Origin: Candidatus Staskawiczbacteria bacterium | GTDB taxonomy: Bacteria > Patescibacteriota > Minisyncoccia > Minisyncoccales > Staskawiczbacteraceae | Length of the DNA: 64,000 nt | NCBI GenBank assembly: GCA_023245195.1 | Contig: JAHFKU010000001.1 | Location: 27,662-91,661 of the forward strand | Direction: 5' to 3' | Shown here: in pieces, positions 25,137 through 64,000 of the stretch | Position numbering within the stretch: the stretch's first letter is position 1 | Layout: each line of letters opens with the position of its first letter | Position numbers and translations under genes: made by a program | The notes under the pieces: model-generated | What the model saw: only the letters and a program-made list of their open reading frames with translations | Told to the model about the DNA's origin: nothing | The model's database searches: none

Positions 25137-25150
25137 AGGTCGAAAACGAA

Positions 25151-41635: not shown

Positions 41636-41886
41636 CTTCTGGGAAGTTATCCACAGTTTTACGGTGGTTTTTAGTATATTTCACATCATTAAAATATGGT
41701 AAAATGAACGAATAATTTTATATTTTTTCCAGCTTTTTTAAATGCCTCCCAAAAAACGCAAGCATAATATTATAACCATAAAAATAAAAGATAAAAATAC
41801 GGTTGCAAAAGCTCCGGCAAGTCTTTATGTGCGCATTGTTTCTCCTGCGCCGGCGCATAAATTATGGTTGCTTAATCTTTTTAGTT

Positions 41887-41957
41887 CTCAATTGCAAAAC
41901 TTCCGTTTTAAAAGTTACTTTTTTGGTCTTTTTCCCACAAAAGATTTTCGTGATTCA
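41887..41957. repeat. Internally deleted MITE-A remnant in the 5' leader of giant gene 2
   Basis: Matches the left 45 bp (…CCGTTTTAAAAGTTACTTTT…GGTCTTTTTC) and right end (AAAGATTTTCGTGATTCAG) of the 26831 copy. Confidence 0.6.
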
Positions 41958-41975
41958 GTGTTTTTTAAAGTTTTT

Positions 41976-47900: not shown

Positions 47901-50900
47901 GGCGCCCAGCCGACGGTTACCACGTTGACGCAGGGATCAAGTGCTCAACTTACGTTTAGCGGCACGGTTCCAACGATTACTACTCTAACCGCAACAGCTT
48001 CGTCAAATACCGTTAGCTACACTTCCACGAGTTCCCAAACTACCATTGCCGCCACCTATGTCAACTTTGTAAAATCTGGCTCCGGCGGTACTGCCACGTT
48101 GGGAGGTGATACCGTTTTAAACGGTACTTTAACAATATCTTCGGGTAGCCTTCAGCTTTCTACTGCTAGTTTTACTGCCACCGGAGCATCGTCTATTACC
48201 GGAACTTTAAACGACAACAGTGCCACGGGAACTAACATTTTCATTGGCGCCGTCACGATTAACAGTGGCGGAGTCTGGACCGAAACTAACAATCCTGCTT
48301 TTGAATTTAGGGGAGGACTGACTAATGATAGTTCTTCTGGTTTTACTTCCGGCACCGGAACCTACACCTTCAGTACCAACGCCCAAACGATATCTGGTTC
48401 CCAATCTTTCACGATTACTAATTTGACTAACAGTGTTACCAGTTCCACCGGACTTACCTTTTCTGGTGCCCAGCCGACCGTGACCACATTAACCCAGGGA
48501 AGTAGCGCGTACCTTACTTTTTCTGGTAACACGGTTCCAACTATTACTACGCTAACAGCCACGGCTAGCGGGAATACGGTTGAATATAGTGCTGCCTCCC
48601 AAGCCATTAAAGTTGTTTCGTATGTTAATTTGACGCTAAGCGGCAGCGGTACTGCCACCGGTGCGGTTACTACCGTTACCGGAGCTTTAAATATTTCGGG
48701 AACCGTGTCTTGGTCCGCCGATGCTATTACCAGCACCATGACTAGTGTTACCGTAAATACCACTGGGACTTTAACCCTGGGAGCGAACATGGCTACCAGC
48801 GGTGCCCTTACCGTAACGAAAGGAACTTTTAGCGCATCGGGTAGCAACTATACGGTTACCGCCGCTTCGGTATCTTCAGCAAATACCAACACCCGCACGA
48901 TTACGATGGGGTCGGGCCTTTGGACATTAAATGGAACGGGAACTGTTTGGGATACTTCAACAACGACCAATCTTACCTTAACTTCTTCGGGAACGATAAA
49001 AATAACCGATACCAGCAGTACCGCAAATACTTTTTCCGGAGGAGGAGTGACATCCTTTAATAATATTTATTTTTCGCGCGGGTCAAGTACGGCTTCAAAT
49101 ACGATCGCAGGAAGCAACACCTTTGCTGATTTTAAAGATGATGGAAGCGCCGCTCATTCCATATTATTTACCACGGGCACTACTCAAACCGTAACCACGT
49201 TCACGGTTTCCGGTACTTCCGGCAATTTGATTACTATTAACAGCACCACTACCGGAACCCACACTCTTTCCAAAGCATCGGGAACGGTTTTTTCTGATTA
49301 CTTAAGTGTTCAACATTCAATTGCTACTGGCGGCGCATCTTGGTATGCAGGGTCACATAGCACCGATAATAATTCCGTAACAACTGCCGGAAGCGGTTGG
49401 ATATTTGCTAATGCCCCTTGCACCTCTTTGGCGACTGGTAATTGGAATACCGCCGGCACTTGGGATTGCGGGCATGTACCAACGACGTCAGATCCAGTCA
49501 TCGTTGCAGCAAGCCACGTGGTTACCATGGATGTAAATTCGGCTTCTTTGGGTACCATTACGATTAATGGCACGCTAAATACCAGCGATGGTACGAGCCG
49601 ATCGTTGAGCGGAACCACGTTGGCCATTGGTGCTGTTGGAACGCTTACTGCCAACGCCTCTGTCATTACTCTTTCTGGTACTTCTGGGACACTTTTTGCC
49701 ATTACATCCGGCGGTACTTTTACCAATGGTACGTCGGAAGTGGTGATAACCAGTGCCGCCGATCTTACCCTTAATTCAACCGCTACTTCTTTTTACAAAC
49801 TAACCTTCAATAATTCTGGAAATACCACAACATTGGGCGCGGCAACTACGGTAGATAATAATTTGACGATCACGGCCGGAACTTTGCAATTAAGTACTTT
49901 GGGCCTAACTGTTACCGGCACCACCTCCCTCACCGGCACCTTAAACGACAACTCCGCCACCGGAACAAATCTCTTTGTCGGCGCCGTCACTATTAATAGC
50001 GGCGGAGTCTGGACCGAAACCAACAACCCCGCTTTTGAATTCAGGGGAGGATTAACCGAAAATAGTTCTTCTGGATTTACTTCAGGAACTGGAACTTATA
50101 CTTTTAGCACTAACGCTCAAACGATTTCGGGATCCCAATCTTTTACGATTACCAACCTTACTAACAGTGTTACCAGCTCAACCGGATTAACATTTTCTGG
50201 TGCTCAACCGACGGTTACCACGTTGACGCAAGGATCAAGTGCTCAACTTACGTTTTCTGGAAGTATGCCGACGATCACCACCTTAACAGCTACCGCCAGT
50301 GGTAATACCGTCAGTTACACTTCTACCGGATCACAAACGGTTAAAGGGACGACGTATGTCAACTTAACCATTGATAAATCTGGCCAGACAGCAACCTTGG
50401 GCGGTGATACCACGGCTAATAATAATGTAACTATCACGGCTGGCACCTTAGATGCCGATAATACCAATAATTATAATCTTACGGTTGGTGGCACGTGGTC
50501 AAATTCCGGCACTTTCACTCCACGACAGGGAACATTTACTCTTACTGGCACTTCCACATTTTCTGATACCACTTCATTTTATAATTTTGCCATTAATGGT
50601 TCCGGAAAAACGGTCACCCTTGGCGGAGCTTTAACTGCTTCAAATAACTTAACTATCACCGCCGGCACCTTAGATGTTTCAGCTTCTGGTTGTTCTTCAG
50701 CTTCTTGTGCAGTTTCTGTTGGCGGCACGTGGTCAAATAGCGGTACCTTTACTGCTCGAACAGGAACCGTTACCCTCACCGGAACTTCCACATTTTCTGA
50801 TACTACTTCGTTTTATAATCTGACAATCAACGGAAGCGGAAAAACGGTCACGCTTGGAGGAGCTTTAACTGCTTCAAATAATCTAACCATCACCGCTGGA

Positions 50901-53900
50901 ATCCTGGATGTTTCAGCTTCTGGTTGTTCTTCCGCCTCTTGTGCAGTTTCTGTTGGCGGTAACTGGTCTAATTCCGGAACCTTCACCGCAAGATCCGGCA
51001 CCGTTACGTTAACTTCAACTTCAAGCAGTGCTACCTTAGATTCGGGTGGCAGCAGCTTTTACAATCTCACCCAAAATGGAACGGGTGGTACTTACACTCT
51101 GCAAGGTGGTCTTGGAACGAGCAACAATTTAACTATCACCGCCGGAACGCTGGATACCAAATCAACATTTAATTACGGAGTTTCTGTTGGCGGCACGTGG
51201 TCGCGAAGCGGTACTTTTACCGTAAGAAATGCTAATTTCACCCTTACCGGAACTTCTACGTTTTCTGACACGATGAGTTTTTATAATTTCATTATTAATG
51301 CTAGTGGCAATACGGTTACCCTCGGTGCGGCTTTAACCGCCACCAACAACTTGACTATCACTGCTGGAACCCTGGATGTCTCGGCTTCTGGCTGTTCTTC
51401 CGCTTCTTGCGCAGTTTCTGTTGGAGGAAATTGGTCAAACTCCGGAACATTTACTAAGCGCACGGGAACGGTTACCTTAACTTCCACTTCTTCGGGCGCC
51501 ACCCTAACTTCCGGCGGCAGTAGTTTTTACAACTTAACCCAAAATGGAACCGGTGGTACTTACACTCTGCAAGATGCTTTATCGGCAACTAATAACTTAA
51601 CGATTACCGCCGGAACGCTAGATACCAAAGCCAGTTCTAACTACGGCGTCACGGTTGGTGGCACCTGGTCTAATTCTGGTACCTTTACGCCACAGCAAGG
51701 AACGGTCACCTTAACCGGAACTTCTACGTTTTCTGATACCACTTCTTTTTACAATATTACTATTAATGCCAGCGGCAATACCGTCACGCTTGGCGGAGCT
51801 TTAACTGCCACCAACAACTTAACCATCACCGCCGGAACTCTGGATGCTTCCGCTAGTGGTTGTTCGTCGGCTTCATGCGCTATTTCAGTTGGAGCTAACT
51901 TTTCAAACTCTGGAACCTTTACGGCAAGAACCGGTACGGTCACCATTACTTCCACTTCTTCAGGAGCCACACTAACTTCTGGCGGCAGCAGTTTTTACAA
52001 CTTAACCCAAAATGGTTCTGGTGGAACTTATACCCTGCAAGATGCTTTAGCTACTACTAATAACTTAACCATCACAAATGGAACTTTAGATGTATCGGCT
52101 TCTAACTGTTCTTCTGCTTCTTGTTCCGTCAGTGTTGGAGGCAACTTCTCAAATGCTGGTACCTTTACCGCCCGAAGCGGAACCGTAACATTAACTTCAA
52201 CGTCAGGAAGCGCTACGCTAAGTCCCGGAGGAACTTCATTTTATAACCTCACTCAAAATGGAAGTGGTGGAACTTATACTTTACAGGGAGGCTTAGGAGT
52301 TACCAATAATTTAACCATCACTGCCGGAACATTGGATACCAAAGCCAGCTCAAACTATGGTGTTACCGTTGGCGGCACCTGGTCTCGATCAGGAACCTTT
52401 ACGGTAAGGCAATCTAACTTTACTCTTACCGGCAACAATACGTTTGCCGACACGATGAGTTTTTACAATTTCATTATTAATGGCTCGGGTAAAACCACAA
52501 CTCTTGGTGCTGCCTTAACTGCTTCAAATAACTTAACCATCACCGCTGGCACCCTGGATGTTTCAGCCAGTGGTTGTTCCTCGGCTTCGTGCTCGGTCAC
52601 GGTTGCTGGAAACTTCTCCAATTCAGGAACCTTTACCGCCCGAACTGGCACGGTTACACTTAATGGCACGAGCCAGAAAGTATTTGGTTCCACCACCTTT
52701 TATAATTTCACAAAAAATATTGCCTCGGCTTCCGCTGACACCTTAATGTTTGAAAACACCAAAACCCAAACCGGCGCTTCCGGCGGAACCTTCAGCTTAG
52801 TGGGCGCTTCCGGAAAAGTGCTTACCCTCCGATCTATGGATTCTTCTGGAACTCAGTCAGATGGTACAGAGTGGAATCTTACGGTAAACGGCAGCCAAAA
52901 TGTTACCTATGTTGACGTTAAAGATTCCAATGCCTCCGGCGGAACGGCTATCGCTCAAACCAATTCCACGAATTCGGGCAACAATACTAACTGGACATTT
53001 AACACTGCCCCGACATTTTCTTCTATTTCTAATACCTCTGGTTATATTAAATCCGGAGGCACCGTAACTTTTACTACCACCGCCAGCGACCCTGATTCTG
53101 GCGATACTGTCACTCTGTACGTCTGCAAGGCCAACGATTTTACTGGCAGTGCTTGCGGATCGGGGGGCACGTGGTGTTCTTCTTCAGCTTCCACCACCAA
53201 TCCTTCGTGTAGTTACACGGTCCAATCTTCTGATACTGACGGCTCGCACACTTATTATGGAAATATTATAGATAATAATAGTTCTCAATCTTCGTCTAAT
53301 CCAAGATCAGGTACGTTTACCACTGATTCTACCGCTCCCACGGTTGATGCGGGAACTGATCAGTCAAAATCTGCCAGCTTCACCCAAGACGCTACGGTTT
53401 CTGATGCTACAAGCGGTATCGCTAGCTACCAGTGGAGCAAGCAATCGGGAGGCGGGACAATTACCTTTGGAACCGATACGGCCGAAGATACCACTATTTC
53501 TGCCAGTGCTGCCGGCACTTATGTAATTAGGCTGACCGCAACTGATAACGCTGGCAATTCCAATTACGACGAATTTACTCTTACCTGGACAGTTACATCT
53601 TCAAGCAGTGGCGGCAGTGGTGGCGGAGGCGGATCTCATTTTAGCGCTTTAGACAAGCCTCAAGGAAACTTTTCTCTTACTATTAATAATGGGAGCAGCA
53701 TAACTGCCAGTCAGGATGTTACCTTAAATATGATCGGGGTAGGCAGTGATGTAAAAAGCATGTCAGTTTCCAATGATCAGAATTTTGCCGGCGCGATTCA
53801 AGAAGCTTATCAAACAACAAAATCTTGGAGGCTTACTGATGGAGAGGGTCTAAAAACGGTCTATGTTAAGTTTTTCACTGCCTATGGGGTGGCTTCTGAT

Positions 53901-55331
53901 GTGATTACCTCAACCATCAATTATACGACCCAGCCTCAAAATCCTATTAGCCAAATTATTGACCAGATTGGGCAAGGTGTTACGGAAATTAAAGATAATA
54001 TTGGTAAGATATTTACTCTAAAACCGCCGGCTCCGCCAGCTTTGCCGCCAGTAGAAGAAACCGTAAAGAAGGCCGCGCCTCTTTCATTAAAAGGCAAATG
54101 GAATCTTTTGGCTTTTGATTCAATCTGGGAATTCCTTTTCGCTCCTTTGCCAACCGAAACAAAATCGTTGGCCAAAAAATTACCCGAAGTTAATGAATTG
54201 TTCAAGCAAACTGGAATTGTAACGGTTAATTCAACGGTTCAAAAATTACAAGGGGTTGAATTGACGGTTCCGGGATTAAATAAAAGAACGATTGTGCAAA
54301 AAATCGGTGGCGGCGGAACTATTCCCAAAGCAGAGCCTATTGAAGGTGGTAATTTAACGGCTCCAAAATTACAAGGCGGGGGATTAGCAAAAACGGAATT
54401 AGCGCCAGTTCAATTTGCGTTGCCAAAAAATATTCCCTTGGCCCAAATCGGGGCGAATATCAAAAAGGTTATTCCAACTGAAATTGTCTTTGCTAGAACC
54501 GCTAACGAGCTGATTGATTTTAATATTATTTTGTCTATCAATGACCAGGGAAAACTGCAACAACGAATTAATACCATTTCTGGCCAAGAAATTAAGCTGG
54601 CCGTAAAACCCGATGGGCCGGTCAGCAGTGTAAAAGGATATTTGGTTTTAAAATCAAAACAGCCAGCGCCAACCGCCTTTGAATTACCACGCAACATTTT
54701 CTCGGCATCATTGCTTTTTTCAAATCCTGATTTAGTGGCTTCTTCACAGGGCGCGCCAAAAGTTGAAACTCAATTATTATTAGATGAATTTGATTATCAA
54801 GACGAAGACAAAGATGGAATTTGGACTGCCAACATTAAAGCTCCAGCAGTTGATGGCGAATACGAAGTCACCACGATTATGAAGTACAAAGATATCAAGG
54901 TTGGAGATAAAGAAATAAGATTGGTCGTGGTGGTGGACCCGGAAGGCTATGTTTACAGCAGTGTGATGGGCGGGGAATTGCGTATTAATGGAGCGATCGT
55001 TTCTTTGTACTGGCTAAATCCCGAAAGCAAACAATACGAAATTTGGCCGGCGGCCGATTTCCAACAGGAAAATCCCCAAATTACCAACAAAACCGGTAAG
55101 TACGCATTTTTGGTGCCCGAGGGATTGTACTATATAGAAGTGGCGGCGCCCAACTATGCTACGTTCCAGTCTGAAGTTTTGACCGTCAAGCAAGGTAACG
55201 GCATCCACATGAATATTGAATTGAAAAGCAAGAATTGGTGGCTGGCCTATTTTGACTGGAAAACTATCTTATTGGCTTTGATATTTTTATTATTGTGTTA
55301 TTTAATCATTCGCGGTAAAATTAGAAAATAA
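41976..55331 (+). CDS. Giant S/T/G-rich beta-helix surface protein 2 (~4450 aa) with C-terminal TM anchor; paralog of protein 1
   Basis: Signal anchor; acidic P-rich linker; a module with the same N-terminal motif as protein 1 at ~aa 610; long near-identical tandem repeat arrays; Ig/PKD-like domains near the C-terminus; C-terminal TM helix. The track start at 41742 reads through a hairpin leader and a MITE-A remnant, so the in-frame GTG at 41976 is preferred. Confidence 0.7.
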   Translation: MAEFWHLKNTARTNIKSIALVSSLFIFSLTLTTGNSFISTYQIHQRDYRTIKDVVIKQLSPAVINQPTQYTVLVKQSLITKGKKGQYLVKLPKGATNISVKTILADQAKQILSKETPKITSLFSNLKNPLSFTKPSHSVSVKPKNGQFLLASLDESGLPETPPALEPVAVESLPVELPPAAEHAADPVKTQEESAVSESAPIQEEPVTSDVRVIKTKDATFVDVSSQAPPAPESVTENNSEASDAPVVPDAPAANDANQDSTNQDIADSPEIVSGEVPASDKSSADKPADKENKENSGQNNPDNKLKKEEYIKIDYQIQAAVITEQKTNHGKNVTVSAPNEDPEHPLTNVLAFTAIPEIFNIGQEDNIQIKWTNNQDQPMPFTAHDTNGNGKLDYLEWVVPHLSEQEFNIIYISKAFLLDQDKNVLEDIYPIVKEQDGTFQAVTQGQYVRVTFIKNLTQNNDITLYARPTDPNQPVTIKVYSALTDQLITTFDVIDHEDTYRVLLTNLEQDTDVFDLKITNANADIDFIVDPGNACATNTTGTVNWSAAGTWTSCGGGYPGQSGNSDTVTIANAAVAVTGDVTVTVDTITFTGGNASASINISNGITITATGAATINAPTSASITKEIAVGGGALSVGGLFTLASGSSSTRISKLSVGTGTATLSAGLTCTGSAETFTVASGGTFNFTGTMSAGCLTVTINSGSTTNFSGTVQLDGAYTFGIVTVNSGTTTMGAVAITFAGTTTLGGGTLAVSSATGTKTFTGAVTCTTGSFDLSAAAAVTSFAAGITANCTTFNTGSGTATLSATQSLAGSTNITFGGALTVSAGTTTNNNSGTVLSTGVLTLTGNWAQGANSTLSMNSTNSGSGTLDASTNTPNTVKYNATATLKAPTSSYHNLTITAGTVTSVAVTISNDLVVSGGTFSGTASITVNGGDVTGDGTITMTGGTFLLDGTGNFGGATAWTFNNLTFGDGSGTTTTTATGAGGITVTGATTVAANQTLDAGSKTWNLTGSVSTITFRAEAQDINTGTNCNPGEPAGTVANDLLVGMVWVGSAAGTTPSMPTGWTSLYSGISSNNDWRYNVGYIVRGSSAAATTFTNTNHYRECFIIGFSGVSTTGTIDAQSSSGTLSNASAHNPDPPAVTAVSSAAMAIALGWNEAGNAGPGTTNWTAPTNYTMRSTDPSNGNGVAIASRLLTSSGSENPSAFGNVGSGTTDYWDGATFTLTPATLTPLTVNGTFTASTSTVAFQNDMALTIPALTYYNLTLTPTITAARTYTFAGATTVSNNLDINPTASSALALTANLGGTTTVTGSITIEGTTSGTSKLDTVSGSNYSLTAASINITSAGTFTPQASTVTLTGTSGTLFTKAGTFTVATSTFVVTSSSGQPSLLSAATTFHILKINTTGGSTVINANQTITIDDASGAKLWIAGGVLNDSGYGISTSASTTNTLQIDSGTTLCLGGASTNTSTTCDSNATSTTSRTLPTFQTYTLDSASTVIYLSNAATTVTSKTYGNLSLMPKMTTGVGSLTYTMPSSTVSIAGNFNIKPTASNASLALTVNLATASNTVTGTTTIQPDSTNSPTAKLASTSSNYNLTTGKVDIESNGTLDINNSTLTVTGTSGTLFTRVGTFTIGGTSTTTFSGNGDATLNSGTITFDAMTSSGTGTKTLGNDITTGGALTISAGTLQLSTLSLTANSTTSLTGTLNDNSATGTNLFVGAVTINSGGVWTETNNPAFEFRGGLTENSSSGFTSGTGTYTFSTNAQTISGSQSFTITNLTNSVTSSTGLTFSGAQPTVTTLTQGSSAQLTFSGTVPTITTLTATASSNTVSYTSTSSQTTVAATYVNFIKSGAGGTATLGGNTTLNGTLTISSGTLQLSTANLSVTGASSITGTLNDNSATGTNTFTGAVTINSGGVWTETNNPGFTFQGGLTNDSSSGFTSGTGTYTFDTNAQTISGSQSFTITNLTNNVTSSTGLTFSGAQPTVTTLTQGSSAQLTFSGTVPTITTLTATASSNTVSYTSTSSQTTIAATYVNFVKSGSGGTATLGGDTVLNGTLTISSGSLQLSTASFTATGASSITGTLNDNSATGTNIFIGAVTINSGGVWTETNNPAFEFRGGLTNDSSSGFTSGTGTYTFSTNAQTISGSQSFTITNLTNSVTSSTGLTFSGAQPTVTTLTQGSSAYLTFSGNTVPTITTLTATASGNTVEYSAASQAIKVVSYVNLTLSGSGTATGAVTTVTGALNISGTVSWSADAITSTMTSVTVNTTGTLTLGANMATSGALTVTKGTFSASGSNYTVTAASVSSANTNTRTITMGSGLWTLNGTGTVWDTSTTTNLTLTSSGTIKITDTSSTANTFSGGGVTSFNNIYFSRGSSTASNTIAGSNTFADFKDDGSAAHSILFTTGTTQTVTTFTVSGTSGNLITINSTTTGTHTLSKASGTVFSDYLSVQHSIATGGASWYAGSHSTDNNSVTTAGSGWIFANAPCTSLATGNWNTAGTWDCGHVPTTSDPVIVAASHVVTMDVNSASLGTITINGTLNTSDGTSRSLSGTTLAIGAVGTLTANASVITLSGTSGTLFAITSGGTFTNGTSEVVITSAADLTLNSTATSFYKLTFNNSGNTTTLGAATTVDNNLTITAGTLQLSTLGLTVTGTTSLTGTLNDNSATGTNLFVGAVTINSGGVWTETNNPAFEFRGGLTENSSSGFTSGTGTYTFSTNAQTISGSQSFTITNLTNSVTSSTGLTFSGAQPTVTTLTQGSSAQLTFSGSMPTITTLTATASGNTVSYTSTGSQTVKGTTYVNLTIDKSGQTATLGGDTTANNNVTITAGTLDADNTNNYNLTVGGTWSNSGTFTPRQGTFTLTGTSTFSDTTSFYNFAINGSGKTVTLGGALTASNNLTITAGTLDVSASGCSSASCAVSVGGTWSNSGTFTARTGTVTLTGTSTFSDTTSFYNLTINGSGKTVTLGGALTASNNLTITAGILDVSASGCSSASCAVSVGGNWSNSGTFTARSGTVTLTSTSSSATLDSGGSSFYNLTQNGTGGTYTLQGGLGTSNNLTITAGTLDTKSTFNYGVSVGGTWSRSGTFTVRNANFTLTGTSTFSDTMSFYNFIINASGNTVTLGAALTATNNLTITAGTLDVSASGCSSASCAVSVGGNWSNSGTFTKRTGTVTLTSTSSGATLTSGGSSFYNLTQNGTGGTYTLQDALSATNNLTITAGTLDTKASSNYGVTVGGTWSNSGTFTPQQGTVTLTGTSTFSDTTSFYNITINASGNTVTLGGALTATNNLTITAGTLDASASGCSSASCAISVGANFSNSGTFTARTGTVTITSTSSGATLTSGGSSFYNLTQNGSGGTYTLQDALATTNNLTITNGTLDVSASNCSSASCSVSVGGNFSNAGTFTARSGTVTLTSTSGSATLSPGGTSFYNLTQNGSGGTYTLQGGLGVTNNLTITAGTLDTKASSNYGVTVGGTWSRSGTFTVRQSNFTLTGNNTFADTMSFYNFIINGSGKTTTLGAALTASNNLTITAGTLDVSASGCSSASCSVTVAGNFSNSGTFTARTGTVTLNGTSQKVFGSTTFYNFTKNIASASADTLMFENTKTQTGASGGTFSLVGASGKVLTLRSMDSSGTQSDGTEWNLTVNGSQNVTYVDVKDSNASGGTAIAQTNSTNSGNNTNWTFNTAPTFSSISNTSGYIKSGGTVTFTTTASDPDSGDTVTLYVCKANDFTGSACGSGGTWCSSSASTTNPSCSYTVQSSDTDGSHTYYGNIIDNNSSQSSSNPRSGTFTTDSTAPTVDAGTDQSKSASFTQDATVSDATSGIASYQWSKQSGGGTITFGTDTAEDTTISASAAGTYVIRLTATDNAGNSNYDEFTLTWTVTSSSSGGSGGGGGSHFSALDKPQGNFSLTINNGSSITASQDVTLNMIGVGSDVKSMSVSNDQNFAGAIQEAYQTTKSWRLTDGEGLKTVYVKFFTAYGVASDVITSTINYTTQPQNPISQIIDQIGQGVTEIKDNIGKIFTLKPPAPPALPPVEETVKKAAPLSLKGKWNLLAFDSIWEFLFAPLPTETKSLAKKLPEVNELFKQTGIVTVNSTVQKLQGVELTVPGLNKRTIVQKIGGGGTIPKAEPIEGGNLTAPKLQGGGLAKTELAPVQFALPKNIPLAQIGANIKKVIPTEIVFARTANELIDFNIILSINDQGKLQQRINTISGQEIKLAVKPDGPVSSVKGYLVLKSKQPAPTAFELPRNIFSASLLFSNPDLVASSQGAPKVETQLLLDEFDYQDEDKDGIWTANIKAPAVDGEYEVTTIMKYKDIKVGDKEIRLVVVVDPEGYVYSSVMGGELRINGAIVSLYWLNPESKQYEIWPAADFQQENPQITNKTGKYAFLVPEGLYYIEVAAPNYATFQSEVLTVKQGNGIHMNIELKSKNWWLAYFDWKTILLALIFLLLCYLIIRGKIRK
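47040..48560 (+). repeat. Intragenic tandem repeat: about 2.7 units of ~570 bp in giant gene 2
   Basis: Repeated protein unit TLNDNSATGTN.F.GAVTINSGGVWTETNNP.FEFRGGLTENSSSGFTSGTGTYTF.TNAQTISGSQSFTITNLTN.VTSSTGLTFSGAQPTVTTLTQGSSAQLTFSG; >90% nt identity between units. Confidence 0.8.
49920..50345 (+). repeat. Fourth dispersed copy of the 570-bp unit, ~300 bp identical to 47041-47340
   Basis: The run CCTCACCGGCAC...GACGCAAGGATCAAGTGC is nucleotide-identical in both places. Confidence 0.8.
50400..52760 (+). repeat. Intragenic tandem array of alternating ~222/~246-bp units (~468-bp dimer, about 5 copies) in giant gene 2
   Basis: The LTITAGTLD anchor recurs at 50428, 50650, 50883, 51130, 51351, 51598, 51819, 52066, 52311 and 52536. 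Units encode ...DVSASGCSSASCAVSVGGNWSNSGTFTARTGTVTLT... alternating with ...DTKASSNYGVTVGGTWS.SGTFT..QG..TLTG... Confidence 0.8.
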
Positions 55332-55884: not shown

Positions 55885-56060
55885 CACTTTAAATCCCGAA
55901 ATGCCTTCGAGGTATTTTTCCAGAATTTGGAGATAGAAATTTGATAGAATTTTCAGGCTTACGCAACGCGTCCGGCTGAAAATTATAGCAAATTTATAGC
56001 CCAAATTCTGGTAAAAGACCCGAAGAGCGGTTTAAAACGGGCATTTCGGGATTTAAAGTG
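55885..56060. mobile_element. MITE-A copy (~176 bp) with perfect 21-bp TIRs
   Basis: CACTTTAAATCCCGAAATGCC ... GGCATTTCGGGATTTAAAGTG. Confidence 0.8.
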
Positions 56061-56130
56061 TCATCGCCTTCATACATTTTGTGCAGGCTAGTACCCGTTC
56101 TTTTTTACCCGTCATTAACCTGACCCATTG
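56053..56130 (-). pseudogene. Partial divergent duplicate of the rpmB 3' half, truncated by a MITE-A insertion
   Basis: Minus-strand translation QWVRLMTGKKERVLACTKCMKAMTL* matches L28 QWVRLITSGKRVLACTKCMKAMAK*. There is a stop immediately upstream of QW, and the ORF's own stop lies inside the MITE-A right TIR (56039-56060). Confidence 0.6.
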
Positions 56131-56272
56131 CGTCGCTTCGCTCCTTCAAAACCCTGAGACGGGAATTCGGGTCAAGCCCGCAATTCTCGCGTCTTGCCGG
56201 TTTTGAATAATTTCCTACACGGGGAAATACCCAATTTCCCCGACCCCCTTTGTGACAATGGGTCCTATAATG

Positions 56273-56461
56273 CTATTTTGCCATAGCCTTCATACACTTT
56301 GTGCAAGCCAACACCCGCTTGCCGCTGGTAATCAAACGGACCCATTGTAAATTTGGGTATTTTCTTATCTTTTGAGTCGGATTGTACTTGCCCCTTAGTT
56401 TAACTAAAGACCAAGACATTCCGGATTTTTTAGCGCAAATAGCGCATATTTTGCTTGCCAT
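56273..56461 (-). CDS. rpmB: 50S ribosomal protein L28
   Basis: 62 aa, basic, CAIC...CTKC zinc-ribbon pairs, and PNLQWVRL conserved L28 motif. Confidence 0.75.
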   Translation of the reverse strand: MASKICAICAKKSGMSWSLVKLRGKYNPTQKIRKYPNLQWVRLITSGKRVLACTKCMKAMAK

Positions 56462-56466
56462 ATTAT

Positions 56467-56586
56467 GAATTTCTAATTCTTAATTTCTAATTTCTATTAA
56501 ATTTTCAATGACCTAATTCCTAAACCTGTTTGAAAATTCACCAAGTTATAAATTTAATAGAAATTAGAAATTAGAAATTGAAAATT
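56467..56586. repeat. Family-4 element directly upstream of rpmB (minus strand)
   Basis: GAATTTCTAATTCTTAATTTCTAATTTCTATTAAATT ... AATTTAATAGAAATTAGAAATTAGAAATTGAAAATT. Confidence 0.6.
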
Positions 56587-57375: not shown

Positions 57376-57517
57376 GGAGTAATCACGAATATACAAATCT
57401 AAAGTAATATACGAATTTTACCAATATACAAATCACGTTCACGTCACGGCACGGCACACATTTGTATATTTGTAACATTTGTATATTTGAACGTATTAGT
57501 ATATTCGTGACTACTCC
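57376..57517. repeat. Family-5 long palindrome upstream of rpsL
   Basis: GGAGTAATCACGAATATACAAAT...central CACGTTCACGTCACGGCACGGCACACA...ATATTCGTGACTACTCC. Confidence 0.55.
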
Positions 57518-57523
57518 AAAAGA

Positions 57524-57934
57524 ATGCCTACTATCCATCAACTCATTAAAAAACCTAGAAAGCCGATTAAAGCCAAAAAGAAGGGCGTGGCTTTGCATTA
57601 CGGTTTTAATGCCTTGCAAAACAAGCCATCAACCTATCCGTCTCCATTTAAACGAGGAGTATGTGTGAAAGTGTTTACCCAAACTCCAAGAAAACCAAAC
57701 TCAGCTTTGCGAAAAGTAGCCAGGGTTAAATTATCCAATGGCATGGAAGTAACCGCTTATATCCCCGGAGAAGGACACAATTTACAAGAACACTCGGTGG
57801 TATTAATTCGTGGTGGAAGAGTTAAGGACTTGGGAGGAGTTAGGTATCACATTGTGCGGGGAGTGTTAGACACCGCCGGAGTTGAAAATAGAAAGCAGGG
57901 ACGAAGTCGTTACGGTACAAAATTGAAGAAATAA
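57524..57934 (+). CDS. rpsL: 30S ribosomal protein S12
   Basis: [13 protein letters not shown]...[11 protein letters not shown] canonical S12. Confidence 0.95.
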
Positions 57935-58050
57935 TTTTCAATTTCTAATTTCTAATTTTCATTAAATTATTAATACGTGAATTTTCAATCACGTTTAGAA
58001 ATTAAATGATTAGAAATTTAATAGAAATTAGAAATTAATAATTAGAAATT
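57935..58050. repeat. Family-4 element filling the whole rpsL-rpsG intergenic spacer
   Basis: TTTTCAATTTCTAATTTCTAATTTTCATTAAATT..CGTGAATTTTCAATCACG..AATTTAATAGAAATTAGAAATTAATAATTAGAAATTCC. Confidence 0.6.
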
Positions 58051-58053
58051 CCA

Positions 58054-58518
58054 ATGCGCAGAGCCTATAAAAAACACAAATTATCACCAGACTCGGTCTA
58101 TAATGACCTCGTGGTTTCTCAGTTTATCAATAAAGTCATGAAGTCTGGCAAAAAAACCATTGCACAACGAATTGTGTACGATTCTTTTAATATGATCAAA
58201 GAAAAAACCCAAAAAGAGCCTCTGGAAGTTTTTAATAAAGCGATTGAAAATGTTTCTCCGGTTTTAGAAGTTAAGCCAAAACGGGTTGGGGGAGCGACGT
58301 ATCAAGTTCCTATGGAAGTCCGGCAAGAGCGGAAGTTAGATTTGGCGATTAAATGGATTTTAGACGCCGCCCGCGCCAAAAAGGGCAAGGGTATGGCGAT
58401 AAAATTAAGCGAAGAATTAATTGCTTGCTCAAATAACGAAGGCAACGCCATGAAAAAGAAAAACGACACCCACCGAATGGCCGAGGCCAACAAAGCTTTC
58501 GCGCATTTTGCAAGATAA
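58054..58518 (+). CDS. rpsG: 30S ribosomal protein S7
   Basis: Canonical S7 motifs (NKVMKSGKK...[16 protein letters not shown]). Confidence 0.95.
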
Positions 58519-58552
58519 CTACGAAATACGAATATACGAATAAAAGTATTCG
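58519..58552. repeat. Family-5 motif immediately after the rpsG stop
   Basis: CTACGAAATACGAATATACGAATAAAAGTATTCG. Confidence 0.45.
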
Positions 58553-58603
58553 TCATCGCGACTTGCCGTGGCGAAGCAATCTGATTTTACAAAAAAAGGG
58601 CAC

Positions 58604-58870
58604 CTAGTTGATTTCGGTGTCCTGTTGCGAAACAGCCATGGCAAAAGATTCAGTGCGCTCCTTTGGCGATTCGCTTGATAACAAAGCTATTTCAGCTTTC
58701 TCGAATTTGTCCTCACTTCTTTGCGAGCCCAATATAAGCGAGTAGCTTGATAAAATACCTTCGTCGAGCAATTTTACAAGATCTTTTTGGTCTTGTTCAT
58801 TTTGAGGAATCAAGATAATCATGAAAGAATCTGTATCTTGCACCCTTAAATGATCCACGCTTTGTATCAT
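58604..58870 (-). CDS. Hypothetical protein (inserted between rpsG and fusA)
   Basis: 88-aa ORF in a GC-enriched patch with a palindrome at its 5' end; no family recognised. Confidence 0.3.
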   Translation of the reverse strand: MIQSVDHLRVQDTDSFMIILIPQNEQDQKDLVKLLDEGILSSYSLILGSQRSEDKFEKAEIALLSSESPKERTESFAMAVSQQDTEIN

Positions 58871-58995
58871 GGCCTCCCCCTAAATACGAGGCATCGTATT
58901 TAGTAAAAATTACTCATACTGCCTCTTGGATTGATTATATCATATTGTAAAATCTTGTTAAGTGGTCAATAGTATTTTTGCTAAAAATCCAAAAA

Positions 58996-59023
58996 TTGAC
59001 TTTGATTAAAAATAGGCTAAAAT
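58996..59023 (+). promoter_or_regulatory. Near-consensus sigma-70 promoter (TTGACT-16-TAAAAT) for hicB
   Basis: -35 at 58996-59001 and -10 at 59018-59023, which is 7 nt upstream of the hicB ATG (near-leaderless). Confidence 0.55.
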
Positions 59024-59029
59024 AAACCT

Positions 59030-59248
59030 ATGTCATATAAGTTTACCGCTATTATTAATAAGGAATCAAAATGGTATGTAGCTCACTGTGTTGAATTAGG
59101 AGTGGTTAGCCAAGGAAAAACCATTGAAGGTGCGCAAAAAAATTTAAAAGAAGCAGTAGAGCTTTATTTAGAAGATAATCCAAAGGTTAAAACGTATCTT
59201 TCAAAAGTACCTTCTTTAATCACCACCTTTGAATTGCAGTATCGTTAG
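59030..59248 (+). CDS. hicB: HicB-family antitoxin
   Basis: YKFTAIINKESKWYVAHCVELGVVSQGKTIEGAQKNLKEAVELYLE matches the HicB/UPF0150 fold. A near-consensus sigma-70 promoter lies directly upstream. Confidence 0.7.
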   Translation: MSYKFTAIINKESKWYVAHCVELGVVSQGKTIEGAQKNLKEAVELYLEDNPKVKTYLSKVPSLITTFELQYR

Positions 59249-59251
59249 AAT

Positions 59252-59439
59252 ATGGCTAAGCCACTTTCTGCTAAAATAGTAATTAAAGTTTTATGCAAGG
59301 AGTTTGGCTTTTTCTTTGTTTCACAAAGGGGTAGCCAAACTCCTTGCATAAAGAATTATCACCCGGAACATTAAAAGGAATTTTGGATTTAGCCCAAGTA
59401 GATGAAAAGGAATTTAGAGAAAAATTAATAGAATTTTGA
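59252..59439 (+). pseudogene. hicA: hicA toxin gene, frameshifted and internally shortened
   Basis: Frame 0 encodes ...IKVLCKEFGFFFVSQRGSQ... and stops at 59372-59374. The +2 frame continues NSLHKELSPGTLKGILDLAQ..., which is the HicA C-terminal motif. The GSH...TVP.H core is missing. Confidence 0.5.
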
Positions 59440-59522
59440 AAATTTTGTAAAAAAAAGACCCCGTTCCAGTTCTGGTGTGGGGTATGCGCCTACTTAATTC
59501 GGCACCTCTTTAACAATTTTGT

Positions 59523-59717
59523 TTATTTTTTTTCCATCTCGGTAACCGCTTTGGTGACCAAGCAAAGCCCTATTCCGGTCACCATGATATAGATTGCATC
59601 GATACGATTTTTTTCTCTGTCTGTTGATTCAGAAGTACCCATAAAAACTCCCGCCAGAAATATAAAAGATCCAACAGTCATGAATAATAGCGTACAGAAG
59701 CGAAAAAAGAGATTCAT
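59523..59717 (-). CDS. Small two-TM membrane protein, hypothetical
   Basis: 64 aa with two hydrophobic helices. Confidence 0.3.
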   Translation of the reverse strand: MNLFFRFCTLLFMTVGSFIFLAGVFMGTSESTDREKNRIDAIYIMVTGIGLCLVTKAVTEMEKK

Positions 59718-59796
59718 GCGGATTCTCCTTGAGAGATAGAAATCGCCAAGTTAGAGAGCTATATACATACTATATTACTAATAATATTTTGTCAAT

Positions 59797-59845
59797 TAAT
59801 TGATTAGAAATTATTTAAAAATTCAAAATTAGAAATTAAAAATTC
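59797..59845. repeat. Family-4 half-element immediately upstream of the fusA ATG
   Basis: AATTGATTAGAAATTATTTAAAAATTCAAAATTAGAAATTAAAAATTC. Confidence 0.5.
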
Positions 59846-61921
59846 ATGAGTAGACAATATCCTATCGAAAAAATGCGAAACTTCGGAATCATCGCCCACA
59901 TTGATGCCGGTAAAACAACGGTATCCGAGCGCCTTTTGTTTTATACCGGCGTGTCCCACAAAATCGGAGAAGTGCACGAAGGCGACACCGTAATGGACTG
60001 GATGCCTCAAGAACGAGAACGGGGAATTACCATTACCGCTGCTGCGATCACCATGCACTGGAAGGGGATTCAAATGAACTTAATTGATACTCCTGGTCAC
60101 ATTGACTTTACGGCTGAAGTACAAAGATCATTAAGGGTTTTAGATGGAGCCGTAGTTGTCTTTGACGGCGTGGCCGGAGTTGAGCCCCAGTCTGAAACCG
60201 TTTGGCGCCAAGCTGATAAATACGGCACGCCGCGGGTTTGCTTTATTAATAAATTAGACCGCATGGGCGGCAGTTTTGAAAAATCTTTTCAGTCTATTTT
60301 AGATAAATTGACCAAAAATGCGGTGGCCATGACATTGCCCATTGGAGAAGAAGAAAATTTATCTGCGGTTATTGATTTGCTTAAGATGAAAGCCATTCAC
60401 TTTGAAGGTGAAAAAGGAGAGAAAGTAGTTGAAAAAGAAATTCCAGCTGAAATGATGGAAAAAGCCAAGGCTTGGCGCGAAAAAATGGTAGATAGGATCG
60501 CCGGCGAAGACGACACATTAACAAATAAATTATTGGGCGGAGAAGAGATTTCACAAGAAGAATTAATGGCAACCATGCGAAAAGCTTGTTTGGCTTTTAA
60601 ATTAGTGCCGGTATTTTGCGGCAGTGCTTTAAAAAATAAAGGCACCCAGTTTATTTTAGACGCCGTGATTGATTACTTGCCCGGCCCTATGGATATTGGA
60701 ATGGTTAAGGGAACCGATCCTAAAACCGGTGCCGAAATAGAAAGGAAATTTTCTGATACTGAACCATTTGCGGCTTTGGTGTTTAAAGTTGCCACGGATC
60801 CCTTTGTGGGCCAGCTGACGTTTTTTAGAGTCTATTCTGGAACCCTAAATAAAGGAACCTATGTCTTAAATTCAGTAACGGGCGAGCAAGAAAGAATTGC
60901 CCGGATTTTACGGATGAAATCAAATTCACGGGAAGAATTAGATGTGCTTTATGCCGGCGAAATCGGCGCTACGGTTGGATTGAAAGATACTTCAACTGGC
61001 CATACATTGTGCGACAAAGACAAGCCAGTGATTTTGGAAAAGATTTCTTTCCCAGAACCGGTTATTTCTATGCGGGTTGAGCCAAAAACCAAAGCTGACC
61101 AAGAAAAATTAATCATGTCGATTAGAAAACTTACTCAAGAAGATCCGACTTTTAGAATTAAGGAAGATATAGAAACCGGTGAAACCATTATTTCTGGCAT
61201 GGGAGAGTTGCACTTAGATATTATTCAAGATCGATTGCGCCGTGAATTTAATGTCGATGCTAACTTTGGCCGGCCTCAAGTGGCTTATAAAGAAACGATT
61301 ACCGGCGAAGCCGAAGCCGAAGAAAAATATGTCAGGCAGTCTGGCGGAAAAGGGCAGTATGGCCATGTGTGCATTAGGTTAAAGCCGTTGGAACGGGGCG
61401 CTGGATTTTCGTTTATTGATGAAATTAAGGGAGGCGCCATTCCAAAAGAATTTATTAAGCCAACCGAAAAAGGTATTATTGAGGCTTTAGATAAGGGAAT
61501 TGTGGCTGGTTATCCGATGGTAGACGTAGAAGTTACCTTGTTTGATGGAAGTTTCCATGATGTTGACTCTTCAGAATTTGCCTTTAAGATTGCCGGATCT
61601 ATTGCCCTGCAAGCCGGTGCCAAGCGCGCCAAACCGGTGATTTTGGAACCGATTATGAAAACCGAAGTTATCACTCCGGAAGCATTTTTTGGCCCAGTTA
61701 TTTCTGACTTAAATTCTCGCCGAGGAAAAATTGAACAAACCTATGAACGGGCTGGCATGAAAGTGATGGATGCCATGGTACCATTATCCGAAATGTTTGG
61801 GTATGCGACCGCCCTTCGTTCTCTAACAGAAGGCCGCGCATCGTTTACGATGGAGTTTAATTCCTACGAGCAAGTGCCTTCAAATGTGGCACAACAGATT
61901 ATTGAGGGGAAGACGAAATAG
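59846..61921 (+). CDS. fusA: Elongation factor G
   Basis: Full-length EF-G with GTPase motifs AHIDAGKTT, DTPGH and NKLD, plus domains II-V. Confidence 0.95.
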   Translation: MSRQYPIEKMRNFGIIAHIDAGKTTVSERLLFYTGVSHKIGEVHEGDTVMDWMPQERERGITITAAAITMHWKGIQMNLIDTPGHIDFTAEVQRSLRVLDGAVVVFDGVAGVEPQSETVWRQADKYGTPRVCFINKLDRMGGSFEKSFQSILDKLTKNAVAMTLPIGEEENLSAVIDLLKMKAIHFEGEKGEKVVEKEIPAEMMEKAKAWREKMVDRIAGEDDTLTNKLLGGEEISQEELMATMRKACLAFKLVPVFCGSALKNKGTQFILDAVIDYLPGPMDIGMVKGTDPKTGAEIERKFSDTEPFAALVFKVATDPFVGQLTFFRVYSGTLNKGTYVLNSVTGEQERIARILRMKSNSREELDVLYAGEIGATVGLKDTSTGHTLCDKDKPVILEKISFPEPVISMRVEPKTKADQEKLIMSIRKLTQEDPTFRIKEDIETGETIISGMGELHLDIIQDRLRREFNVDANFGRPQVAYKETITGEAEAEEKYVRQSGGKGQYGHVCIRLKPLERGAGFSFIDEIKGGAIPKEFIKPTEKGIIEALDKGIVAGYPMVDVEVTLFDGSFHDVDSSEFAFKIAGSIALQAGAKRAKPVILEPIMKTEVITPEAFFGPVISDLNSRRGKIEQTYERAGMKVMDAMVPLSEMFGYATALRSLTEGRASFTMEFNSYEQVPSNVAQQIIEGKTK

Positions 61922-61988
61922 TAAAATTTTACAAGAAAAAACCCCGCAACACGAAGTTGGGGGTGGGTTGATTAATTAAAAGAGCGGT

Positions 61989-62372
61989 TCAAGAAAGAGC
62001 TTTTAGCAGATCATCAAGCAGTTCGTCTTGTATTGGGGTTGCAATTGATGCCGCTTTCACACCGCCAAGCTCATTGAGTTTGCCGCGATACGCCAGAAGA
62101 ATAGCATTGAGCGCCACGAGGGGAATCTTCTCTTCCCACGAGCATTTCGCCAGGAACTCGCGCGTCGGTGCCTCTCCGTGTTGCTCGATGCAAACTTTGC
62201 CATTCTTGGTGATAGTGATAACCATTGTTTCGGGTCGATCTTTTTCTGGTTTTTGTATCACGAAACCAAAGAGTCGGCTTGCGTTCAATTTAGGAGCTGA
62301 AAGTAAAAATTCTCCCGCAACCTGCGTATTTGTTTCTTCGAATGTCTCCAAATAGATTTCTGTTCGGATCAT
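61989..62372 (-). CDS. Hypothetical protein on a GC-rich insertion between fusA and tuf
   Basis: 127 aa, GC ~48-50%, with a strong SD (TTGAGGAGGACTATTCGATG on the minus strand); no family recognised. Confidence 0.35.
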   Translation of the reverse strand: MIRTEIYLETFEETNTQVAGEFLLSAPKLNASRLFGFVIQKPEKDRPETMVITITKNGKVCIEQHGEAPTREFLAKCSWEEKIPLVALNAILLAYRGKLNELGGVKAASIATPIQDELLDDLLKALS

Positions 62373-62510
62373 CGAATAGTCCTCCTCAATACGGTTGAAG
62401 TTGGAAATGAGCGATTTTTAACGTTAATCTTTTTTTCAGGATTTGTCAAATTTGACACGCTTTTCTGGAGGATTATAATGAGAGCATAATATAAAATAGA
62501 TTTTAAAAGT

Positions 62511-62786
62511 ATGAGCGAAGGTTACGCAGAGTTAATTCAGTATTTAGATGAAAAATTCAATAAAATTGGATTGGATTTAGTTGAAGTAAAAACAGATAAA
62601 GCTGATAAGGTAGATATTGCTTCTTTAAAAAAATCTTTTAATGATCTGCAAACTTCTGTTGATACATATGCCCAAAAAGCAGATACGTATTTTCAGGAAA
62701 TGGCCATGCTAACTCACAAAGTAAATAGACTCGAAAAATTTTTGGAAAAGGTGGCCGAAAAACTGGATATGAAATTTGAATATTAG
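62511..62786 (+). CDS. Hypothetical coiled-coil protein
   Basis: 91 aa with heptad-like charged helices. Confidence 0.3.
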   Translation: MSEGYAELIQYLDEKFNKIGLDLVEVKTDKADKVDIASLKKSFNDLQTSVDTYAQKADTYFQEMAMLTHKVNRLEKFLEKVAEKLDMKFEY

Positions 62787-62904
62787 CCTGTTTTAAGAAA
62801 AAGGGCGCAGAAAGGGGCGTTTTTTTTCAATAGGTCTTATTTATTCGTTTAAAAATTTGTAAAAAAAGAGCGCCAGTTTCTATATTTGGCGCACATGAGC
62901 ATTG

Positions 62905-63102
62905 TTACACAGTTTTGCGCGTGGCGGGTTTCTTTTTACGCTTTACCATATGCACATTGATTTCGTCGCTCCGAGGGTTTGACCTTAAGCGGGCTATTTT
63001 CCACCCGCCTGCAAGAAGCTTATTAAGATTTCTCATCCTTTTTTCGCCCTCTTTTGAATAATCGTTTTCTTTGATCTTTCTTAAGAGGATTTTCTTGCCC
63101 AT
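62905..63102 (-). CDS. Small basic hypothetical protein
   Basis: 65 aa and K/R-rich. Confidence 0.3.
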   Translation of the reverse strand: MGKKILLRKIKENDYSKEGEKRMRNLNKLLAGGWKIARLRSNPRSDEINVHMVKRKKKPATRKTV

Positions 63103-63336
63103 GATTTCTCCTTATAAGTGCGGGCGAGCCTGTTAATGACCTGCATGCAATGTATTACAATAATCGGCATTTGTCAATAAAAATGTAAAACCGGCCACAT
63201 TGTATTGACTTATTAAAAATAGTATAATAGTATTAATAGAGTAAATAAATTTCACATAACACGTAACACATAACACGTAACAAAAAACGATTTCGTTGTT
63301 TTGTTCCATGTTTCATGTTATGTGTTTCATGATAAA

Positions 63337-64000
63337 ATGGCAGCAGAAAAATTTGAGAGGTCAAAACCTCACGTAAACATTGGTACCATCGGCCACGTTG
63401 ACCATGGAAAAACTACCACGTCAGCCGCAATTATGCACGTAACCAAATTACGTGGCTTAAAGTCGTCCGGACAAGGTGTTGATGAAATTGATAAGTCTCC
63501 GGAAGAAAAAGCTCGAGGGGTCACGATTTCTATCACTCACTTGGAAATGGAAACTCCAAAAAGGCACTATGCCTTAATTGACTGCCCGGGACACGCTGAC
63601 TACATTAAAAACATGATTACCGGAGCCGCTCAAATGGACGGCGGAATTTTAGTGGTATCAGCTCCAGACGGACCGATGCCTCAAACCAAAGAACATATTT
63701 TATTGGCCAAGCAAGTTGGTTTGCCAAGCCTTTTGGTATGGATGAACAAATGCGATATGGTAGATGATCCAGAAATTTTGGATTTGGTTGAATCTGAAAT
63801 CCGTGAATTATTGAAAAAATACGGGTTTCCAGGAGATACTACGCCAATTATCAGGGGTTCAGCCGTTAAAGCTTTAGCTGCAACTTCTCTTGATGATGCC
63901 GCTGCCAAGCCAATCGTTGAATTATTGGATGCTTGCGATAATTATATTCCAGAACCTACCCGCGAATTAGACAAGCCTTTTGCGATGGCTATTGAAGACG
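63337..64000 (+). CDS. tuf: Elongation factor Tu, 5' partial (continues beyond the window)
   Basis: [27 protein letters not shown]... with G1-G3 motifs; no stop within the window. Confidence 0.95.

Follow-up and report, generated by a model that had tools for sequence, protein, structure and literature searches.

Small Predicted Genes in the Widened Spacers of the str Cluster of a Candidatus Staskawiczbacteria Bacterium

The str cluster, formed by the genes of the ribosomal proteins S12 and S7 (rpsL and rpsG) and of the elongation factors EF-G and EF-Tu (fusA and tuf), was analysed in a 64-kb stretch of the genome of a Candidatus Staskawiczbacteria bacterium (assembly GCA_023245195.1, contig JAHFKU010000001.1, positions 27,662 to 91,661), which is called the window throughout and to whose numbering all coordinates refer unless another contig is named. 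Patescibacteria, also known as the candidate phyla radiation (CPR), are ultra-small bacteria. The closest relatives of the window are metagenome-assembled genomes of this group; L-numbers designate these relatives and the other contigs compared with it. The window has a GC content of 40.6% and carries nearly all of its genes on the plus strand. On this strand lie, in the canonical order, rpsL (57524-57934; Pfam PF00164, 5e-36), which lacks an upstream Shine-Dalgarno sequence (SD), rpsG (58054-58518; PF00177, 8e-62), fusA (59846-61921; assigned by the Pfam domains of the called gene) and tuf (63337-64000), the last one truncated by the end of the window and present as a full 399-aa gene in L001, a contig of the European Nucleotide Archive (ENA). 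Gene order and orientation, as well as the S10 cluster that follows, are those of the canonical str operon of Escherichia coli, Bacillus subtilis, and most bacteria. Unlike in that operon, close adjacency is lost: the rpsG-fusA and fusA-tuf spacers measure 1.3 and 1.4 kb (1327 and 1415 bp, together about 2.7 kb), they contain convergent and divergent autonomous genes, and tuf has its own conserved promoter block. Six gene units occupy the two gaps, namely hicB with a dead hicA, a 91-aa coiled-coil gene, and four minus-strand open reading frames (ORFs) of 88, 64, 127, and 65 aa, each of these four having a strong SD, a terminator, and a match to a promoter, which in the case of the 127-aa ORF is weak. 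A preliminary description of the sequence had held that the operon is broken up by accessory genes, among them a toxin-antitoxin (TA) module; this is indeed the arrangement, and all the gap ORFs listed there were found again. The chimeric assembly against which it had cautioned is excluded, since L001 is identical to the window over 7333 nt covering both gaps, contigs of a second ENA assembly and of the Logan run SRR14366769 match positions 60759-62613 at 99.9-100%, and a different species (L170, GCA_964373565.1) also carries hicBA between rpsG and fusA.

The rpsG-fusA gap begins with the left arm of a GCTACGAAATACGAAT-type palindromic spacer (58519-58552), whose right arm is missing and of which full two-armed copies occur in L001 (10310-10395 and 12175-12259). 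The 88-aa cassette follows on the minus strand (unit 58591-58961, ORF 58604-58870), with the promoter TTAACA-16-TATAAT accompanied by a TG (58961-58934), a hairpin in the 5′ untranslated region (58880-58903), the SD GGGGGAGG, and a terminator hairpin with T-run (58591-58622) that overlaps the stop codon. Among 1.8 billion representatives the 88-aa protein has one homologue (P0127, 44% over 73 aa), the gene of which also has an AAGGAG SD, conserves the stop codon and terminator of the cassette, and sits on a 508-bp contig without usable context. Beyond hicBA lies the 64-aa cassette (unit 59447-59795, ORF 59523-59717, minus strand), comprising the promoter TTGACA-17-TAGTAT (59795-59767), the SD AAGGAG and a terminator (59447-59484); its product is apparently a two-helix membrane protein, as judged by eye from the hydrophobic stretches. 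The gap closes with the right arm alone of a AATTAGAAATT-type spacer (59794-59845), which serves as leader of fusA and shares 81% identity with the rpsG leader (58000-58051). An inversion of rpsL-rpsG, by which the 88-aa gene would have been moved from upstream of rpsL, was also considered (L171 ends in ACGAATATAC repeats) and was dropped because this repeat family occurs in many spacers.

Between these two cassettes is the TA module. The hicB antitoxin gene (unit 58996-59248, ORF 59030-59248, plus strand) encodes a HicB-like protein of 72 aa and has its own promoter match, TTGACT-16-TAAAAT (58996-59023); this match ends 6 nt upstream of the ATG, so the mRNA is probably leaderless. The protein matches PHROG 497 (‘HicB-like’, 1e-5) and remains below the Pfam gathering cutoff (UPF0150 5e-5, HicB_lk 8e-3). 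Its homologues number 1288, with identities of up to 96%, and some are called HicB by their sources; those encoded directly upstream of Pfam-positive HicA genes are 89-96% identical to it. In this near-identity to the neighbours of HicA, and in the adjacent, co-oriented genes that lie 3 nt apart behind their own promoter (the antitoxin gene comes first, its end at 59248 and the start of hicA at 59252), the pair resembles the type II HicAB systems. It differs from them in that the toxin gene is a pseudogene (59252-59439, plus strand), with the frame broken and the segment of the conserved His (GSH in the L170 orthologue) deleted. The remnants, 59252-59374 and 59344-59439, lie in two frames and cover positions 3-22 and 39-57 of the HicA profile (PF07927), positions 23-38 being missing, and the window holds no intact HicA ORF of about 60-75 aa. 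When compared with intact homologues, 34-46 nt have been deleted internally, and the lost segment encodes HVKLRKKAIITVVPL, including the His of the GSH motif, which we take to be the catalytic His of HicA. The joined pieces score 26 bits against the Pfam cutoff of 27, versus 53.9 bits for the intact L170 orthologue. The break falls inside a palindrome with 30-nt arms (59290-59319 and 59323-59352; 87%, the inner 20 bp perfect), on which the spurious miRNA-type matches that were the sole Rfam result for the two gaps are also located. Both arms share one window-specific substitution (CAAGGAG / CTCCTTG), and a palindromic junction with the same substitution in both arms is the trace expected of an intrastrand template switch; the deletion that killed hicA looks like the product of such an event, hicB being left intact. 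The earlier account had described hicA as frameshifted; the lesion is more than that. Copies of hicBA that are 82-85% identical in nucleotides lie between nrdA and nrdB in other CPR genomes, beside further TA genes; therefore, spacers between conserved neighbours seem to be general harbours for TA modules. In L162 (1173-6327) and L163 (3-5337), the spacer between the genes of the large and small ribonucleotide-reductase subunits holds hicBA, a YafQ-like toxin, DUF6290, and small minus-strand ORFs, which repeats the pattern of a filled spacer between two conserved partner genes.

The fusA-tuf gap contains three units. The first, on the minus strand, is the 127-aa orphan cassette (unit 61940-62372, ORF 61989-62372), whose SD, GAGGAGGA, precedes the ATG by 8 nt and whose terminator lies at 61958-61940. 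Apart from itself, the 127-aa ORF has no homologue among 5.8 billion proteins, and none in phage genomes, PHROGs, NCBIfam, or PADLOC; its AlphaFold2 single-sequence model was uninformative (pLDDT 43). A bidirectional promoter region (62444-62479), homologous to positions 8434-8503 of L170, separates this cassette from the coiled-coil gene. In it, the palindrome TGTCAAATTTGACA (62444-62457), also conserved upstream of a 96-aa cassette of L170, gives TTGACA on both strands and on the plus strand is part of a perfect TTGACA-16-TATAAT ahead of the 91-aa coiled-coil gene (62511-62786, plus strand). The 91-aa protein has only weak coiled-coil matches in the libraries and, like the 127-aa ORF, no match in phage genomes by tblastn; it is 46% identical (E 6e-24) to the product of a 78-aa ORF that lies just before tuf in L170 (8502-8738), the promoter being within the homology. 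The third unit, again on the minus strand, is the 65-aa basic cassette (unit 62860-63177, ORF 62905-63102), with the promoter TTGACA-17-TACATT (63177-63149), the SD AAGGAG and a terminator (62860-62892). A word-indexed search with the 65-aa ORF returned the self-match only, and no Pfam match was obtained even at E ≤ 1. The gap ends with the tuf promoter block and leader (63205-63334, plus strand), that is, TTGACT-17-TAGTAT (63205-63233) and an intact palindromic leader (63253-63334); the promoter block is conserved in three genomes (the window, L002, and L170). Across both gaps, nothing beyond HicB/HicA was obtained with PHROGs, NCBIfam and PADLOC, the matches to PADLOC defence models being at chance level (E about 0.002-0.01).

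The minus-strand gap cassettes and the host genes differ in their translation signals. An SD-like core is found at three of the 45 plus-strand gene starts of the window (host genes, hicB, and the 91-aa gene), and a strong SD at all four minus-strand gap ORFs. When both strands of the 64 kb were scanned for true ORF starts (frames of 40 aa or longer) whose start codon has an AGGAG or GGAGG core ahead of it, the gap ORFs and the positions 1520 and 10876 were the sole positives, and the small minus-strand gap ORFs of the relatives share the SD-led design. The ORF at 10876 (10876-11112, plus strand, 78 aa, AGGAGG SD) is the only other small SD-led ORF of the window and has no match in PHROGs or NCBIfam. 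Nearly every intergenic spacer, inside the ribosomal-protein cluster too, is an 85-190-nt palindrome of short tandem units, the unit varying from spacer to spacer (AATTAGAAATT, ACGAATATAC, or CACGTAACACATAA), and the downstream ATG usually stands directly after the AT-rich right arm, without SD. Such palindromes lie at 25150-25268, 29541-29584, 32262-32310, 33808-33968, 35174-35340, 56468-56579, 57376-57517, 57933-58050, and 63253-63334, and within 7890-12259 of L001. The one at 57933-58050, between rpsL and rpsG, is composed of AATTAGAAATT units and forms the native rpsG leader (an inverted repeat with 52-nt arms, 77% complementary); the AATTAGAAATT motif as a whole is enriched in the window, with 28 matches versus 7 expected. 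The family-4/5 repeats that had been placed in the insert are arms of these genome-wide spacers and not insert borders.

Comparison with relatives bears directly on the age of the arrangement. In EF-G, L170 and L002, the closest genome in the species-level collection, are mutually closest (90.5% identity), the window is equally distant from both (87.8%; a separate comparison of its EF-G with that of L002 gave 89%), and L082 and L083 fall outside. The gaps of these genomes are of diverse sizes: 506 bp (rpsG-fusA) and 1735 bp (fusA-tuf) in L002, about 2.1 kb and 4.6 kb in L170, 29 and 1349 bp in L082, and 473 bp and more than 2.9 kb in L083. L170 has the order rpsG, an 86-aa minus-strand ORF, MNT/HEPN, hicB (89% aa identity), an intact 70-aa hicA, a 63-aa minus-strand ORF, and fusA; its hicBA is 73% identical to that of the window in nucleotides, compared with 75% for rpsG and 78% for fusA, and the homology begins exactly at the −35 element. 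Short blocks of promoter, SD or terminator sequence link each of the four minus-strand cassettes to a cassette at the corresponding position in L170, L002 or L082. The promoter block ATACTATTGAC is common to the 88-aa cassette and the 86-aa cassette of L170; the blocks TTGACAAA, CAAGGAGAA, and TTTTTTTACAAAATTT are common to the cassettes upstream of fusA in the window (64 aa), L170, and L002; the post-fusA (127-aa) cassette shares the block GTCAAATTTGACA and the SD with its positional counterpart in relatives; and the pre-tuf (65-aa) cassette shares the SD context CTTGAAAGGAGAAA and an LNK..GW motif with L002 (64 aa) and L082 (75 aa). The ORF bodies between these blocks cannot be aligned in any of the four cassettes. 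The 75-aa protein of L082 matches DUF4177 just under threshold (4e-5), and the 65-aa ORF is like it in motif, size, position and SD context, although the window protein itself has no Pfam match. Because the regulatory blocks of the cassettes recur at the same positions, as do hicBA and the coiled-coil gene, we conclude from these sequence comparisons that the layout is probably inherited within the clade and that most of the intervening genes would be lineage-specific residents rather than fresh insertions.

Widened spacers are also common well beyond this clade. When gap sizes were taken from tblastn coordinates, the fusA-tuf gap had a median of 635 bp in CPR-labelled genomes, with 24 of the 29 genomes above 300 bp and ten of them above 1 kb, whereas in non-CPR genomes the median was 76 bp, with one of 24 above 300 bp and none above 1 kb. 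The rpsG-fusA gap exceeded 300 bp in 12 of 37 CPR-labelled genomes and in 0 of 31 non-CPR genomes (non-CPR median about 100 bp, typical non-CPR gaps measuring about 30-150 bp), and metagenome loci follow the same trend. Insertions at this place had previously been regarded as rare, a view that the 24 of 29 fusA-tuf gaps do not bear out. The 94 gap ORFs collected from CPR loci have no common family and mostly no Pfam match; they include scattered TA parts (MNT, PemK, HicB, and Phd), 23S intervening-sequence proteins, and some housekeeping genes. A literature search on the str operon in Patescibacteria, on integration hotspots at fusA/tuf, and on SD usage in Patescibacteria found nothing on point.

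Taken together, these data make it reasonably probable, in our judgement, that the str cluster has undergone a lineage-wide relaxation into separate units, the spacers of which have conserved slots for fast-evolving, SD-led mini-genes, for the coiled-coil gene, and for transient TA modules. According to this proposal, the gene order would be kept while the cluster would no longer be one tight operon; tuf, and probably fusA, would be transcribed separately by means of their own promoter or leader elements, as the sequence suggests, and host genes would be translated from AT-rich palindromic leaders without SD. The slots would be inherited in the clade, some as minus-strand mini-genes whose regulatory blocks are kept and whose ORF bodies have diverged beyond recognition or been replaced, another as the plus-strand coiled-coil gene just before tuf. 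TA modules would come and go, hicBA being found in the window and one relative and MNT/HEPN pairs in others. New material would most likely be brought in by recombination that uses the highly conserved genes on either side as anchors, either by Campbell-type integration of circular DNA carrying a fusA 3′ fragment or by homology-facilitated illegitimate recombination of relatives' DNA. We infer this route from the extra copies of the fusA 3′ end found in the fusA-tuf spacers of relatives, three in L170 (diverged and still in frame), one in L002 and one in L025, which indicate that the fusA-tuf junction does turn over and that recombination there is recurrent; in L149, the C-terminus of rpsG is duplicated. 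We further propose that the residents may persist because deletions reaching their essential neighbours would be lethal.

Several observations weigh against this interpretation. The two gaps of the window are themselves without scars, and the recombination route is therefore an extrapolation from relatives. With 11-16 nt of exact match, the conserved regulatory blocks are short, and it is on them, together with position and orientation, that the homology of the slots is based. L002, which by EF-G is nearer to L170 than the window is, has no hicBA, and hicB copies at other loci (85% nt) resemble the coding sequence of the window more than the L170 copy does (73%); on these two grounds, hicBA may have been acquired independently at the same site. 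Read-through from rpsG or fusA may cross the antisense cassettes, the translation of the 127-aa and 65-aa orphans is predicted from SD, ATG, ORF length and terminator, and the genome sample behind the gap statistics is biased by the search patterns.

The main alternative, and the one favoured in the preliminary description, is a recent insertion of mobile foreign cargo, specific to this genome, at a site-specific or repeat-mediated integration hotspot. Part of it stands: the units are autonomous, one is a TA module, and spacer content varies between relatives to the point that the gap DNA of L002, the tuf promoter excepted, cannot be aligned with that of the window. The orphan status of the 127-aa and 65-aa ORFs, the use of SDs by the minus-strand ORFs and not by host genes, the closer hicBA homologues at other loci, and the fusA 3′-end scars of relatives could be read in the same sense, as could the two half-palindromes without partner arm, 58519-58552 and 59794-59845, which are the sole border marks of the rpsG-fusA insert. 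However, the residents have positional counterparts: through hicBA of L170, the coiled-coil gene and the blocks of the four cassettes, relatives largely carry the same intervening genes as conserved members. Composition is normal as well. The genes of the window (42 compared) have a GC content of 39.1 ± 4.7% (range 27-50%), and all gap ORFs lie within |z| ≤ 1.8 of them in both GC and GC3; the 127-aa ORF, which had been taken for a foreign GC-rich gene, is within the range (46.4%, z = 1.5). As to repeat-mediated integration, neither gap has flanking direct repeats or gene-end copies; searches for attachment-site-like repeats and gene-end copies with blastn-short, and with tblastn using the ends of rpsL, rpsG, fusA, and tuf, yielded only chance 8-13-mers. 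A 52-nt direct repeat at 58000/59794 was rejected as an attachment-site pair, being the leader type shared by rpsG and fusA. Integrase or recombinase domains are absent from all window gap ORFs (Pfam, PHROGs, NCBIfam, and PADLOC), no recombinase family is among the 25 families listed, out of 26, for the 94 gap ORFs of relatives, the gap ORFs tried against phage genomes gave no matches, and tRNA genes are lacking in the whole window. Considering both sides, a recent insertion seems unlikely to us.

Integrative and conjugative or mobilizable elements (ICEs and IMEs) integrate into the 3′ ends of translation genes, for example rplL, rpsI, and rpmG in streptococci. The str spacers are similar to these sites, and to hotspots of horizontal gene transfer flanked by core genes, in that variable cargo lies between conserved genes and in that, in relatives, the 3′ end of the target gene is present a second time, in diverged form, next to the insert. 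The differences are that neither an integrase nor a relaxase was found, that insert lengths are very small and range from 0.1 kb to a few kb, that the gaps of the window are free of scars, and that conserved slots, not islands, make up much of the content.

A structured element that accompanies duplicated gene ends was found outside the two gaps of the window, in a minus-strand segment (56053-56461) containing rpmB (bL28-like, 56273-56461), the element (56140-56251) preceded by GGACCCATTG (56256-56265), and a diverged copy of the rpmB 3′ end (56053-56130). Four copies of this element, 70-110 nt long, were seen: one follows rpmB in the window, two follow fusA, in L170 (7001-7358) and L002 (8076-8341), and one lies beside a tRNA-Arg pair in L162 (695-885). 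Two of its hairpins show compensatory changes, and 54 consecutive nt are shared with 100% identity by the window and L170, two genomes with about 77% identity in their core genes. The segment immediately 5′ of the core is complementary to the local target over 10/10, 18/18, and 11/11 nt in three copies and over about 13/15 in the tRNA-side copy of L162; a diverged second copy of the target 3′ end then follows the element, or, in L162, only a partial tRNA 3′ fragment. No Rfam match, no copy in viral contigs and no integrase nearby were found. A diversity-generating retroelement was rejected as the source of the duplicated ends, since the copies differ mostly by synonymous substitutions at third positions, and by an indel, without specificity for adenines. 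One may speculate that the gaps are hypervariable cassette slots with conserved promoter, SD, and terminator frames that are renewed by an undescribed structured element targeting gene 3′ ends. This we consider rather doubtful; the element is not in the two str-cluster gaps. The layout would fit a miniature element, possibly guided by nucleic acid, with the 3′ ends of conserved genes as its insertion sites. The structured element at gene 3′ ends, together with the opposition of SD-led cassettes to SD-less host genes, provides concrete leads.

Quite improbable, in our opinion, is a functional role of the small genes as lineage-specific components of the translation cluster, for example as regulators or as ribosome- or elongation factor-associated factors. 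The conserved position of the coiled-coil gene upstream of tuf and the recurrence of the DUF4177-like minus-strand gene before tuf in three genomes agree with such a role, and so does a 45-aa basic, Cys-containing protein (MRKRLKHKKRSCALCKPNKVGW...) encoded immediately upstream of tuf in L170 (8742-8879) and L002 (9505-9642) with 73% identity. Yet the window lacks the last gene, the ORF bodies either are hypervariable or cannot be aligned, the cargo is heterogeneous across CPR without a shared family, the minus-strand ORFs are antisense to the cluster, and no domain points to a role in translation. Finally, it is highly improbable that the minus-strand ORFs are chance frames in non-coding regulatory or structural DNA, or an assembly artefact. 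In favour of this view, frames as short as the 64-aa and 65-aa ORFs could occur by chance and have no homologues, the model of the 127-aa ORF is of low confidence, and the genome is rich in palindromic spacers. Against it, each cassette of the window and of three relatives has a properly spaced SD, a start codon, a frame of 61-127 codons and usually a terminator, a combination much too regular to be accidental; at the protein level, the 88-aa ORF has a homologue of the same design; and the arrangement is borne out by independent assemblies and by a second species.

These results suggest that the str cluster, among the most conserved gene arrangements of bacteria, is routinely opened up in the sampled Patescibacteria. 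This bears on operon decay in reduced, possibly naturally transformable genomes, on safe harbours for selfish or accessory genes between essential conserved neighbours, and on the way in which annotation, synteny-based binning, and marker pipelines handle CPR ribosomal clusters.

Some minor observations concern the surroundings and the relatives. In the relatives, a family of small coiled-coil genes (73-79 aa) has a TTGACA-17-TACAAT/TATAAT promoter that ends 6 nt before the ATG (L170 5395-5429, 7741-7775, and 8467-8501; L002 9058-9092). The mRNAs of this family are apparently leaderless, and its genes are duplicated inside the fusA-tuf spacer of relatives (L170 5387-5676 versus 7731-8035). Just upstream of the studied region, an ORF of 4529 aa (41742-55331, plus strand) has long internal repeats and is rich in Thr, Ser, and Gly. 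It is followed by an element resembling a miniature inverted-repeat transposable element (55885-56060), with 21-nt terminal inverted repeats CACTTTAAATCCCGAAATGCC, whose relatives lie in the tuf-rpsJ spacer of the same genome (L001 7890-8065) and on another CPR contig (L163 5468-5546).

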